Shown here: piece after piece, positions 3,549 to 16,100 of the stretch
Position numbering within the stretch: the first letter of the stretch is position 1
Layout: every line of letters starts with the position of its first letter
Origin: a virus
Strand: one strand, 5' to 3'
DNA length: 64,000 nt
Virus record (IMG/VR): IMGVR_UViG_3300028027_000002
Coordinates: 32,001-96,000 of that record
Program-made: the position numbers and the translations under genes
The notes under the pieces: model-generated
What the model saw: the letters and a program-made list of their open reading frames with translations, nothing else
What the model was told of the DNA's origin: nothing
Databases searched by the model: none

Positions 3549-3566
3549 TATGGTATACTTTAGTAT

Positions 3567-11280: not shown

Positions 11281-11320
11281 AAAAGGGCTGTATAATTAAC
11301 TTGAGGAAACAAGCCCTTTT
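11281..11320 (+). promoter_or_regulatory. Inverted repeat/terminator-like hairpin enclosing the -10 element for the tail tube gene
   Basis: AAAAGGGCT(11281-11289)/AGCCCTTTT(11312-11320) with TATAAT at 11291-11296 in the loop. Confidence 0.6.
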
Positions 11321-11350
11321 AATCCAAAAGAAAAAAAAGAGGTGAAAAAT

Positions 11351-11995
11351 ATGGCATATACACGTGGTAGCAGCAACAATATTATTGTTGGAGCAGCAGC
11401 CCTCTTCACACATGAAGACGGCGTACTAACAGAAGCAGCCCTTCCAGGTTACGTAGCAGGAGACTCTTTCAAGGATACCCTTGAAGCAGATGCTGATTTC
11501 CGTAACATTGGTTACACAATGAATGGTTTGGAAATTCAATTCCAGCCAGACTTTGGTGAGGTTGCAGTAGATCAGGTTCTTGACGTTGCTAAGTTGTTCA
11601 AGCAAGGCATGCAGGTAAACCTAAATACTACATTCGCAGAATCAACACTAGAGAATCTTCTATTTGCATTAGCAGGTAAGGATTCAGATCTAGGTGCAGT
11701 ATCAGGAACAGGACTAGGTGCAGGCTCTGCATCACTTAACCTTTCAGCAGGAGACATTGGCGAATGCCCAGTCGAACGTGGTTTGGTTGCAGTTGGTCCA
11801 GGAACTGGAGATTGCGAAGCAGGATCTTCAATCGAAAGAATCTATGTAGCATACCGTGCACTTTCAATCGAAAGCGTATCAGTATCTGCAAAGAGAGACG
11901 AAGCGACAATGTTCGAAGTATCATTCCGTCTTCTTCCAAACGATAACGCATCATACGGTAAGATCGTAGATCGCACTATCCCAGCAGGCGCATAA
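11351..11995 (+). CDS. Major tail (tube) protein
   Basis: SD GAGGTG; NIIVGAA, IGYT.NG, VDQ.LD, T.FAE.TLENL motifs; followed by a terminator. Confidence 0.85.
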   Translation: MAYTRGSSNNIIVGAAALFTHEDGVLTEAALPGYVAGDSFKDTLEADADFRNIGYTMNGLEIQFQPDFGEVAVDQVLDVAKLFKQGMQVNLNTTFAESTLENLLFALAGKDSDLGAVSGTGLGAGSASLNLSAGDIGECPVERGLVAVGPGTGDCEAGSSIERIYVAYRALSIESVSVSAKRDEATMFEVSFRLLPNDNASYGKIVDRTIPAGA

Positions 11996-12017
11996 TACAA
12001 CTTAATATATACAGTTT

Positions 12018-12046
12018 AGCCCAGGCCCTAAAAAGTCTGGGCTTTT
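12018..12046 (+). terminator. Intrinsic terminator after tail tube gene
   Basis: AGCCCAGGC/GTCTGGGCT stem plus T tract; abuts the TGTTATACT promoter at 12048-12056. Confidence 0.75.
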
Positions 12047-12062
12047 CTGTTATACTATATAT

Positions 12063-12746
12063 ATGGCAACAACTGTATATAATACAAAAAATATTGTTCT
12101 ACAAGACGGGGTAGAGATAGAACTGTCTCCATTAAAAATAAAATATCTTAGACAACTAATGGATAACTTTGATGAGGTTAGAAATGCACAAGGAGATCTT
12201 GAGGCAATCGTAGCCCTATCAAAGTGTGCAAGAATTTGTATGAAGCAATTTAGACCAGAGATTACTCAAACACAAGAGATGCTAGAAGAATATGTTAACT
12301 TACAGGACATCTATGACATTCTAGACATAACTGCTGGTATTAAGATTAATGATAAATCAGAAGAGCCAGTAAAAAAACAAGCAGTTGATAGTGGTTCATC
12401 TTGGGAAGAACTTGACCTTGCAAAGTTAGAGTCTGAAGTATTTTTGCTGGGGATTTGGAAAGACTACGAAGAACTAGAAACATCACTATCCATGCCAGAG
12501 TTAATGATAACCCTATCTATTAGCAGAGAGTTAAACTACGATGAAAAGAAATTCCTTGCAGCGATGCAGGGTGTAGACCTAGACAAAAATGCTGAAAAAT
12601 CCAATGCCTGGGAAGAAATGAAAGCCAGAGTGTTTAGTGGTGGTCAAGCATCTAACTCAAAAGACATTGTTGCACTGCAAGGATATAACGCAACAAGGGC
12701 TGGATTTGGAATTGGAATGGGCTTAGACTACGAAAAAGTAGACTAA
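12063..12746 (+). CDS. Tail assembly chaperone, long (G-T fusion-like) form, leaderless
   Basis: Between tube and tape measure genes; N-terminal ~100 aa align with the next ORF, and the C-terminal half is an extra domain. Confidence 0.7.
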   Translation: MATTVYNTKNIVLQDGVEIELSPLKIKYLRQLMDNFDEVRNAQGDLEAIVALSKCARICMKQFRPEITQTQEMLEEYVNLQDIYDILDITAGIKINDKSEEPVKKQAVDSGSSWEELDLAKLESEVFLLGIWKDYEELETSLSMPELMITLSISRELNYDEKKFLAAMQGVDLDKNAEKSNAWEEMKARVFSGGQASNSKDIVALQGYNATRAGFGIGMGLDYEKVD

Positions 12747-12794
12747 AAACACGCCTGTTTATGGTATAATTAAACAACTACAATGGAGGAAATC

Positions 12795-13118
12795 ATGGTT
12801 AAAGAAGTAGAAAACAAGAATCAACTGTCCCTTATAGACGGAACAAAGTTTGAGATTAAGCCACTAAAGATATCTCTACTTAAGCCTTTTATGGAGAACT
12901 TTGCTAAACTGCAAGAAGTTGCAGATGATAATAGCAAGTCAATGGATGTTCTTATTGATTGCGTACAAATTGCATTTAAACAATACTTGCCTGCAATTGC
13001 AGACAACAGAGAGGCGATTGAGGAAAATCTAGATCTTCCTACAGTCTACAAGATCATTGATGCTGCTTCAGGAATGCAACTTTCTGATGCAACAGGTCTT
13101 CTAAACTCAATCAAGTAA
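12795..13118 (+). CDS. Tail assembly chaperone, short (G-like) form
   Basis: Own promoter TGGTATAAT 12762-12770 and SD GGAGG; paralogous to the N-half of the preceding ORF. Confidence 0.7.
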   Translation: MVKEVENKNQLSLIDGTKFEIKPLKISLLKPFMENFAKLQEVADDNSKSMDVLIDCVQIAFKQYLPAIADNREAIEENLDLPTVYKIIDAASGMQLSDATGLLNSIK

Positions 13119-13131
13119 AGAGGTGTGCTGA

Positions 13132-16100
13132 TTGGCTGACGTAAATGCAAATATTGGTATTAATTTTGATACCAGTCAAGCCTTAGCACAATTACGTCAG
13201 TTACAGGCTGGTCTCAGCCGTTTTAATCAAACCCTAACTCAGGGTAATGTTGCAGCAATGAATGCACAAAAGGCTCTTAACAGCCAGTTGATGCAGGCCA
13301 TTAATGCAACTGGAAAATTTGTTGCAACTCAGAAAGATGTAGCCACAAGCACATCTTCTTTTACGCAGGCACTTGAAAAAAATCAATTGTCGATGCGACA
13401 ATACTTTAGATACACCGCTGCTGCAGCAACTCAAAATACAAAAGTATTTAAGGGTATGTTTGCACAAGAGCGTGAGACTTTAACACGTGCTAGTAAAGAT
13501 AGAGTAAAACTCCTACAGTCTCAGTATATCCAGATGCAGGCTGCAAATGGAAATATGATCAAGGTTCTTCAGGTTATTCCAAAGCACCTAAAGATGGTCA
13601 ATGGACAGTATGCAGATTATGCAACACGAATGCAAATGGCTGCACAAAGACAGCAATTTTTAAATAAACTATTAAGTCAAGGCTCAACCCAACTCCTGAA
13701 TTTTGGTAAGAATACTCAGTGGGCAGGTCGCCAGTTAATGGTTGGTTTAACTATTCCTCTTACGATTCTAGGATCAACTGCAGCAAAAACATTTATGGAA
13801 ATGGAGCAGGCAGTAACCAAGTTCTCCAGAGTATATGGAGATATGACAACTGGAAATGATGCGACAAACAGAGCAATTGCAGACATTCAACTACTTGCAA
13901 AAGAATTTACAAAGTATGGCATTGCAGTAAAAGATACTGTAGAGATGGCTGCAACAGCAGCAGCAATGGGTTTAACTGGAGGGGCTTTAAATGCACAAGT
14001 AATTCAAGCAACTAGGCTTGCAGTACTTGGACAGGTAGAACAGCAGCAAGCGCTAGAGACAACAATCTCTCTTACAAATGCTTTTGGAATTGCTTCTGAA
14101 GATCTAGCAAAAAAGATTAACTTTCTTAACGCAGTAGAAAACCAGACTGTTCTTTCTATTGAAGACTTAACAATAGCAGTTCCAAAGGCTGGTCCAGTTA
14201 TTAGGCAACTTGGAGGATCTGTAGAAGACCTAGCATTCTTTATGACTGCAATGAAGGAAGGTGGAATTAACGCATCAGAAGGTGCTAACGCACTTAAGTC
14301 TGGTCTTGCTTCTATGATTAACCCTTCTAAGAAGGCTAGTGAATTTCTTGCTGAACTTGGAATTAATATTACAGGAATTGTTAACGCAAATGCTGGAGAC
14401 TTAAAGGGAACTGTTATAGGATTTGCTAGAGCCTTAGATACACTAGATCCCCTTAACCGTGCCCGTGCAATTGAGCAAATGTTTGGTAAGTTCCAGTTTG
14501 CACGTCTTTCAACACTATTCCAAAATATAACAAAAGATGGAAGTCAGGCTTCTAGAGCACTTGGACTTGCTGGTGCATCAGTTGAAGAGTTAGCAATCTT
14601 GTCTGAACGAGAACTTGGCAAGGTTGAAGATATGACTGGTGCTAAGTTTAAGAAGTCTATGGAAAATCTTAAACTTCAGTTAATCCCAATAGGTAAAGCA
14701 TTTTTGCAAGCAGTAACTCCTATAGTTAATTTTGTTGGAAGAATTCTAGAAAAGTTTAATACTTTAAGTGATGGAACTAAAAAAGTTGTAACAGTTATCA
14801 TTGGAGTTATTGGCGGTCTTGCACCAGTTGCGTTGATGACTTTTGGTGTTCTGATGAACGCAGTTGCAAATGGAATTAAATTATTTGCAAAACTTCGTGG
14901 AGGAATTGCTCAACTTAATGGATCAAACAATGTTCTTGGTGGAGGGTTTGAATATTTAACTAACGAGCAAACTGAAAACGTTGCACAGGCTAATGCTTTA
15001 CACACATCTCATAGTCAACTAATTTCTACATTTAATGTTGAAGCAGCATCAGTTCAAGCATTAGCAGCAGCATATCAAACTGCAGCATCTCAGGCAAGAG
15101 CCCTTGCTCAATCATCTCCAGGATTATTTAACACGGTACCAGGACCAACAGGAGCAGTAGCAGGACTACCAAAGAAGTTTGCAAGAGGTGGAGTTGTTCC
15201 AGGTACAGGAAATAAAGATACTGTGCCAGCAATGCTTACTCCAGGAGAAGTTGTTCTATCAAAAGATATGGTCAAAAATAATCCAGAACTTATTGCTGGA
15301 ATTATGAATGGCAGTGTTAAAAAGTATTCACAATCAACAAACGTAGAGGGTGGTGGATTTTCTGCAGAGGGTCTAGCAATACGAGCAGCACAGATGAAGG
15401 AAGTTTACCTTGGCACTGGTAGCGAAGGGTTTGACAAGAGAGTCAAAGGACTTATAGATGGGGCAATTTCTGTTGGAGAGGCAGGAGTTAAAAGAATAAT
15501 TGAGTTTGCTAGAGCATCTGGAGAAGAGATTGTAGCGTCACAAACAGAGGCTATGAATCGTTGGCGAAGCGCAATGCTTGATGAAGCAGATGCAGCCCTT
15601 GCTGCTGTACCAGATAGATCTGCTTCAAAGGATGAAATAAAAGAGTTTTTAAAGACTAGAGCGCTTGGCTCATCAAATGCTTTTGATACGCTGGATACTC
15701 ATGGAGGACAAAACAAAGCAAAAACTTTTGCACATACAGAACTATCAACGCCAGTTTCTTATGAAGAAGCATTGCGTGTGTCTAGCCAAAGTAAAAGAGT
15801 TTCTGACAGAATTAAGTTAATACAAGGGGGGGCAGACTGGGCCAATAATCTTCCAGATAGCGATCCAAGAAAACCTAAAACTCCAATTACACCAGAGTTT
15901 AGAGCAGTTTCTGCTGCAGGTTTTGAGGGAATTACACAAGAAACAAATAAAGAACTAGACCTAGGCACAGCAAGTGTTACTAAGTTTGTTGATGAATTTA
16001 CTAATTTAGATCCAATTGAAAAGTGGGGGACAAGTCTTAGAAATGCTGGACTTGATATTGATGCTCATGCAGAAGATATCAGGCAACTCGATGCAATTTA

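Follow-up and report, generated by a model that had tools for sequence, protein, structure and literature searches.

Fused GT-type and stand-alone G-type tail assembly chaperone genes in a clade of uncultured phages, probably in place of a programmed frameshift

How does a long-tailed phage supply the two forms of its tail assembly chaperone (TAC) when each form appears to have a gene of its own? Normally, in TACs of the lambda type, the long form arises through a programmed -1 (rarely +1) frameshift at a slippery sequence close to the G gene's 3' end; neither G nor T is found in the virion, and the short form is in large excess. This G/GT frameshift is among the most conserved recoding events, and the fixed ratio of its products is held to be its purpose. 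In lambda, the tape-measure protein is bound by G as well as by the G part of GT and the tube protein by T, the ratio being roughly 30:1 (PMC5009743), and the conserved -1 TAC frameshift of long-tailed phages has been reviewed (PMC5009743; Levin 1993; Xu, Hendrix and Duda 2004, 2013, 2014). We analysed a 64,000-nucleotide stretch of an uncultured freshwater phage (positions 32,001 to 96,000 of IMG/VR record IMGVR_UViG_3300028027_000002; hereafter the window), in which two separate genes, a long one (L) followed by a short one (S), lie between the tail tube gene and the tape-measure gene, as originally predicted; both are on the + strand. It is likely, in our view, that L and S are the GT and G chaperones of this phage, that they descend as two genes from an ancestor with a frameshift, and that their amounts are set by transcription and translation signals rather than by recoding.

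A fused long gene and a second short gene

The original prediction, made from the sequence of the window, was that the N-terminal half of the 227-residue open reading frame (ORF) corresponds to the whole of the next ORF, and that the long ORF then continues in frame into an extra domain. Both statements are borne out. In a BLASTP comparison, residues 1-99 of L align with residues 5-104 of the 111-residue ORF that contains S, with 32% identity, 57% positives and a single gap (E=6e-18), and both proteins match phrog_10504 (E 1e-18 and 7e-18, respectively). Beyond the S-like part L runs on in frame for about 120 residues, and its residues 131-189 match a second PHROG, phrog_10474 (E 7e-13); the PHROGs matched by L and S carry the label "unknown function". 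Across both paralogues 26 alignment columns are at least 85% identical, including a PLKI..LR.FM..F core. In AlphaFold2 models (predicted local distance difference test, pLDDT, of 76.9 for L and 80 for S) both G domains are confident, and the G domain of L and S are predicted to have the same layout of two strands plus helices. The short and the long product therefore share an N-terminal domain, paralogous (32%) rather than identical, and the long one carries a C-terminal T extension. Ratios of non-synonymous to synonymous substitution rates (dN/dS) are 0.23 for the G domain of L, 0.28 for the linker, 0.14 for the T domain and 0.15 for S, and all of these parts are under purifying selection.

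The T domain ends in a tail, GFGIGMGLDYE (L residues 214-227, positions 12702-12743), that is invariant or nearly so throughout the clade and also occurs in the T-only ORFs of distant relatives; its pLDDT in the AlphaFold2 model is below 50, and the tail probably acts as a short linear binding motif.

The arrangement is the rule in a clade. Four scans of IMG/VR, each contributing at most its best 80 hits, gave 246 related loci, in some cases with the same contig counted twice. Of these, 235 carry G and T as a single open frame with a second, short G behind it; in eight more the fused gene is present but the contig ends before S is reached. The remaining three are L244, which is cut by the end of its contig, L236, in which the fused gene is broken, and L092, which has a conventional locus. 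S is thus kept in every locus that has room for it, and the fused ORF is intact in 243 of the 246 loci, representing 144 distinct nucleotide and 131 distinct protein sequences. Relative to the window, the G domain of these fused genes is 47-100% identical and the T domain 62-98%. A hard-wired GT with a stand-alone G, the long gene standing first, as had been proposed from the window, would accordingly be what these loci contain. No intermediate, i.e. a frameshift together with an extra G, was seen among the 246 loci, drawn as they were from the best 80 hits per scan, and a scan with P0017 gave no confirmed relative. L236, where G and T appeared to lie in different frames, was considered as such an intermediate and rejected: its fused gene was broken later, inside T, by a short duplicated stretch in which ESEVFLIGIW occurs twice. 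As the metagenome is an old one, misassembly is the most likely cause.

Sequence nearly identical to positions 11300-13400 of the window was also found in the DNA runs of at least nine studies, under the labels subsurface, lake water and freshwater metagenome and with word shares of 0.24-0.99; two of these runs may be the source sample. This phage or its close kin is therefore widespread.

Relatives with a separate T frame, and the G/T junction

When L was used as a tblastn query against 50,697 phage records, it matched 130 of them, 127 being Streptomyces phages of the Stanwilliamsviridae (E down to 3e-33, covering L from residue 1 to residue 190 or 222). Among the 40 matches listed in detail, the match to L is always in two pieces, both within genes that carry a tail assembly chaperone annotation. 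The first piece, in each of Coruscant, EGole and TunaTartare, corresponds to a G gene of about 115 residues with its own stop, and the second, with a SWEELDLAKLE-like start, is in the -1 frame; in TunaTartare the TAC is annotated as a joined coding sequence. S matches the same 127 Streptomyces-phage records in exactly one place each, which means that these cultured relatives have a single G. A HMMER search of 1.84 billion cluster representatives, of which the best 150 clusters at 50% identity were assessed, points the same way, with 95 T-only ORFs, 43 G-only ORFs and 12 with G+T, several of the last being fragments. From the predominance of T-only and G-only ORFs, together with the two-piece matches, a separate T frame, i.e. 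a frameshift, is the usual state of the wider family.

Such a state is also seen in the IMG/VR contig L092. Its tube gene is followed by a terminator, TGCTATAAT, G and a T in the -1 frame, after which come a TGGTATACT box and the tape-measure gene; no second G was found on this contig. Its G ends in agC CCA AAA gta cag gga taa, and the -1-frame T opens just 5' of the C CCA AAA heptamer. L092 is probably a picture of the ancestral locus. The C-terminal half of L, originally proposed to be a gpT-type extension, is indeed related to the T segments of these relatives, being 54% identical to T of Coruscant and 58% identical to T of L092, each of which lies in the -1 frame relative to its own G; the comparison with phages that have G, a frameshift and T thus comes out as expected in Coruscant, EGole, TunaTartare and L092.

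Two further features of these relatives were seen. L092 carries two tandem tube-like genes (L092:780-2537), the second of which encodes 313 residues and, relative to the 217-residue tube protein of the window, has about 100 extra residues inserted in the N-terminal half. At the G/T overlap in three Streptomyces phages (L001:3270-3350, L002 and L003) no canonical X XXY YYZ was seen, as in caa gct ggg aag aac tag, and their frameshift site may be non-canonical.

In the window, the junction between the G and T parts of L holds a run of seven As. In a codon alignment of 56 distinct relatives this position reads AAG AAA, AAA GAT, AAG TCT, CAA AAA and others, with free synonymous and non-synonymous change, and an X XXY YYZ heptamer is absent from codons 81-130 in 30 of 50 diverse members. 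Since it is not conserved, the run was not taken as a programmed site. Neither mark of a lambda-type programmed frameshift is therefore present: G and T share one frame, and there is no conserved slippery heptamer.

Two alternative explanations hinge on this run of As. One is that a miscounted homopolymer falsely joins G and T, for which the seven As lie in just the right place: with six, the junction would read A AAA AAC and G would stop 18 codons on. However, contigs of three independent DNA studies span positions 12318-12782 with zero differences and zero gaps, and hence without an indel at the junction; most of the 144 distinct intact fused versions lack the run altogether, and the second G copy exists regardless. 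We find this explanation hardly credible. The other is that the run is itself a recoding site. In Escherichia coli dnaX (tau/gamma) a frameshift yields the shorter product, and a -1 slip or transcriptional slippage at A AAA AAA in the window would likewise give a truncated, G-only product, leaving S as an extra chaperone with another role. The sequence gtA AAA AAA Caa is a perfect in-frame X XXY YYZ at the G/T junction, the -1 frame (aca agc agt TGA) reaches a stop after three codons, and the site matches the position of the C CCA AAA slippery site of L092. Conservation of the heptamer is lacking, however: AAG AAA, AAA AAG or CAA AAA stands there in close relatives and AAA GAT or AAG TCT in distant ones, more than half of the diverse members sampled have no slippery heptamer near the junction, and S is retained wherever the locus has room for it. 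Recoding of the dnaX kind thus appears very improbable, if less so than an artefact, and as a feature of the clade it was rejected.

One RNA contig covers positions 12274-12523 unchanged; RNA contigs are deep over the tube gene and almost none extend past 12010, but as neither the depth of contigs nor a stretch left uncovered bears on expression level or termination, this was not used as evidence on either.

Expression signals, origin and alternative readings

The original prediction also held that each gene has its own promoter, the long gene being leaderless and the short one led by a Shine-Dalgarno (SD) sequence, and comparative conservation speaks for this. Among 113 distinct regions upstream of L, 111 contain TGnTAnnnT ending 6-9 nt 5' of the L ATG, and an SD-like motif occurs in none of the 113. 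The hexamer of this box departs from consensus in 107 of the 113 (TAGAAT, TATACT, TAAAAT and the like), with TATAAT in only six. In the spacer between L and S, exact TGnTATAAT is present in 99 of 111 distinct sequences and AGGAG or GGAGG with an ATG in 104 of 111. We therefore predict a leaderless mRNA for L, and for S a promoter combined with a strong SD. Position 12048, given earlier as the start of the stretch described, is the first base of the -10 box of L and not coding. Upstream of L and S, a sigma-70 scan for two hexamers gave no promoter, the boxes being -10-only or extended -10 elements; in the window as a whole TGNTATAMT occurs 19 times against 7.3 expected. The layout of a -10 box, 6-7 nt and an ATG without an SD recurs at 3551, 30741 and 61545, so this phage seems to use leaderless expression regularly, which is consistent with an actinobacterial host.

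Predicted terminators are equally patterned. By an explicit search for a hairpin followed by a T-run in the spacers of relatives, such an element is present in 105 of 113 distinct spacers between the tube gene and L, with 50 different stem sequences, but in only two of 123 L-S spacers and none of 108 between S and the tape-measure gene; no terminator separates L, S and the tape-measure gene.

As for the history of the two G copies, a maximum-likelihood tree of 102 G domains places the S genes on one side of a branch with a support of 84 (Shimodaira-Hasegawa-like approximate likelihood ratio test) and the G domains of L likewise (89), both apart from the Streptomyces-type G (81). In the best tree S and the G domains of L are each of single origin. 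Identity between the G domain of L and S is 38.7% within a genome and 38.5% between genomes, and since the two values are equal, gene conversion between the copies is not indicated. Pairwise divergences of the G domain of L, S and T correlate with one another (r about 0.63-0.65; 0.64 for the G domain of L against S), which fits one old event followed by co-inheritance of all three. The G domain of L has evolved faster than S, as is seen in its higher dN/dS and in mean pairwise identities of 0.59 and 0.63, respectively; S is 44% identical to the G of L092 and the G domain of L 39%. The second G may have come from duplication in place or, less probably, from capture.

A likely course of events is the following. 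The ancestor would have had one locus, making abundant G and rare GT by having ribosomes slip into the -1 frame shortly before G ends, as in the Streptomyces phages and L092. In the lineage of the clade a second G copy would have arisen, the first copy would have been joined to T in frame for good, and with that the slippery site would have disappeared. By analogy with lambda, S, as free G, would coat the very long tape-measure protein, whereas L would sit with its G domain on the same protein and recruit tube protein through its T domain. The terminator after the tube gene would cut read-through; L would be made from its mostly non-consensus extended -10 as a leaderless mRNA, and S would be made together with the tape-measure protein from the consensus TGnTATAAT promoter and strong SD, and also from any L transcript. 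An excess of S over L would then be set by transcription and initiation signals. That L and S are chaperones at all, with the activity and binding partners this implies, is a conclusion by analogy from their position, from their homology to frameshifted genes so annotated and from the two-form architecture. A complex prediction for the tube protein with the T domain scored 0.58 against 0.52 for a control and was used neither for nor against it.

Several points weigh against this reading. The match of the models to solved TACs is weak: when the S model was compared with 350,542 Protein Data Bank (PDB) chains by Foldseek, the tail assembly chaperone of HK97 (2ob9_A) ranked first, yet with an E of 0.62 and a TM score of 0.36 over 98 columns, and the alignment of the S model to YqbN (3klu_A; Z 4.8 over 79 residues, by VIA-align) is one of many helical matches with Z of about 5. 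The full L model had no Foldseek match in the PDB at E <= 0.001, and phmmer and hmmsearch runs against PDB sequences gave no meaningful match. Of the comparisons proposed at the outset, pairwise similarity of the two ORFs was confirmed; that with TAC families gave homology to the annotated TACs of Streptomyces phages, but neither L nor S reaches a curated Pfam TAC family, and Phage_TAC_19 stays below threshold (three of 69 members, best E 0.0088). The supports in the tree are moderate, and the G of L092 is placed without resolution at the base, in a polytomy with S and the G domain of L. The excess of S and the leaderless start of L are predictions, for this phage and for the whole clade alike. 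Leaderless mRNAs can be well translated in Actinobacteria, so that "leaderless" need not mean "rare". Finally, the G part of lambda GT is identical to G, whereas identity between S and the G domain of L is no more than about 32-39%, and the two may therefore no longer be interchangeable.

Some of these points lead to readings that differ from ours in part. Recombination with a related phage whose locus was conventional might have brought in the second G, in which case S would be a xenologue; this concerns origin only and would leave the function of today the same. S is indeed nearer to the G of L092 than to the G domain of L, the polytomy leaves room for such an event, and L092 has its TGGTATACT box before the tape-measure gene, where S and its promoter sit in the window. 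On the other hand, faster evolution of the G domain of L after the fusion explains the asymmetry equally well, both copies are of single origin in the best tree and co-diverge, and no intermediate or donor lineage was found; we thus regard capture as unlikely. Somewhat more probable, although still doubtful, is that the pair has become sub-functionalised, with S coating most of the 3491-residue tape measure and the G domain of L recognising one site, for instance where tube polymerisation starts. The position of GT would then be given by an address instead of by chance incorporation at a low ratio. Such sub-functionalisation is a refinement of, and compatible with, the reading of L and S as GT and G. 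The low identity of the copies without gene conversion, the faster evolution of the G domain of L and the greater closeness of S to the single G of L092 would all agree with it; the 26 columns conserved across paralogues, with their PLKI..LR.FM..F core, suggest instead a shared binding mode, and the difference in rate is modest. If the G domains are specialised, the phage would have a mode of tail-assembly control that is out of reach for a system based on a frameshift.

Comparison with known systems and layout of the locus

Taking L and S as GT and G, the locus resembles lambda gpG/gpGT in its position between the tube and tape-measure genes, in the shared N-terminal G-type domain and in the T-type extension of the long form, and L is directly homologous to the TACs of Stanwilliamsviridae, which use the frameshift. 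It differs from lambda in having two genes with the long one first, in lacking a frameshift or conserved slippery site, and in the amounts being presumably set by promoter and initiation. According to a passage in PMC10885494, which cites Vladimirov, Gautam and Davidson (2022, Virology 566:9), some T4-like phages replace the frameshift by a short TAC gene and a longer fused gene. As far as that passage describes them, these two-gene TACs (gp26/gp51 type) are similar to L and S in pairing a short gene with a longer one that fuses the short part to an extension, without a frameshift. T4-like phages, however, are myoviruses with baseplate-hub chaperones, whereas the locus here is of the siphovirus type; the Pfam family PF12322 (T4_baseplate) was hit by one of 69 members only (E 0.14), a chance-level score, and in the absence of a detectable sequence relation to the T4-like genes the arrangement here would have an independent origin. 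In contrast to the T4-like case, sister lineages that keep the frameshift have been identified here, and the regulatory signals are conserved and readable.

A third comparison is with the engineered gpGfsT of phage TP901-1, in which a one-base insertion permanently fuses G to T and non-infectious particles result (PMC4493119). L has the same genetic change, with G and T in one frame, but unlike gpGfsT, which comes without a separate G, the natural clade has S, probably supplying free G. The TP901-1 result indicates that where GT is fused, G has to come from a second source, and hence that the fusion would be found in nature only together with one.

The general principle of two genes instead of a frameshift is not new, having been reported for T4-like phages in the passage of PMC10885494 referred to above. 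New here are the conventional sister lineage, the clade-wide statistics of the signals, and G domains that have diverged without gene conversion. The original prediction had asked whether the arrangement might already be the documented norm: within the clade it is the rule, yet in the literature we found no description of it for this uncultured phage group. There is, then, a large natural clade (at least 144 distinct sequences, from lake, freshwater and subsurface metagenomes) without the G/GT frameshift, and since close relatives, L092 and the Streptomyces phages, keep it, the frameshift is replaceable and the two solutions can be compared in matched form. This offers a natural test of whether the ratio alone matters or also the identity of the G parts. 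In practice, these genes will be wrongly labelled by annotation software that relies on finding a slippery site, and a frameshift predictor that has learnt to expect two adjacent TAC genes will call frameshifts here falsely.

The record that contains the window is a complete virus of 111,870 bp with direct terminal repeats and a G+C content of about 38%. The order of the four genes in Table 1 is kept across all related loci.

Table 1. Positions in the window of the genes and signals around L and S
Feature	Position	Strand	Remarks
Tail tube (major tail) gene	11342..11995	+	phrog_2175, E 9e-31; also a weaker match to phrog_885, major tail protein
Intrinsic-terminator-like hairpin and T-run	12018..12049 (hairpin 12018-12043)	+	9 pairs, 6 of them G-C; just 3' of tube gene
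Extended -10-like box TGTTATACT	12048..12056	+	ends 6 nt 5' of L ATG; no SD; predicted leaderless-mRNA promoter
Gene L, putative in-frame GT-type tail assembly chaperone	12063..12746	+	227 aa
L, G domain	12063-12362	+	about aa 1-100
L, linker	12363-12401	+	aa 101-113
L, T domain	12402-12743	+	aa 114-227
A7 run, gtA AAA AAA Caa	12371..12377	+	form of a slippery heptamer; at G/T junction of L
Extended -10 box TGGTATAAT	12762..12770	+	consensus hexamer; L-S spacer; predicted promoter for S and tape-measure gene
Shine-Dalgarno GGAGG	12785..12789	+	5 nt 5' of S ATG
Gene S, putative stand-alone G-type tail assembly chaperone	12795..13118	+	107 aa; paralogue of N-terminal half of L
Tape-measure SD, AGAGGTG	13119-13125	+	directly 3' of S
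Tape-measure gene	13132 (TTG) to 23607	+	3491 aa

The short gene had been estimated at about 107 residues, and its start is best placed accordingly: the ORF finder's ATG at 12783, which gives 111 residues, overlaps GGAGG and is absent in relatives, and the first methionine of L aligns with the fifth residue, also a methionine, of that longer version. The tube protein is 46-47% identical to annotated major tail proteins of Streptomyces phages; its gene likely starts at ATG 11351 (MAYTRG...) and not at the ORF finder's GTG 11342, as the consensus of the relatives' alignment is MAYxRG. The N-terminus of the tape-measure protein shares homology with proteins annotated as tape measures in Streptomyces phages, and an AGAGGTG-type SD with a TTG, GTG or ATG start of the tape-measure gene is conserved among relatives. 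This protein is considerably longer than that of Streptomyces phage Coruscant (about 2100 aa), and at the usual 1.5 Å per residue the tail would measure about half a micrometre. The protein also contains the motif VPAMLTPGE(V/F)V(L/M)SK as a near-repeat, one copy being around residue 690 and the other close to the C-terminus, as well as a run of GGTT/GGGTT repeats.

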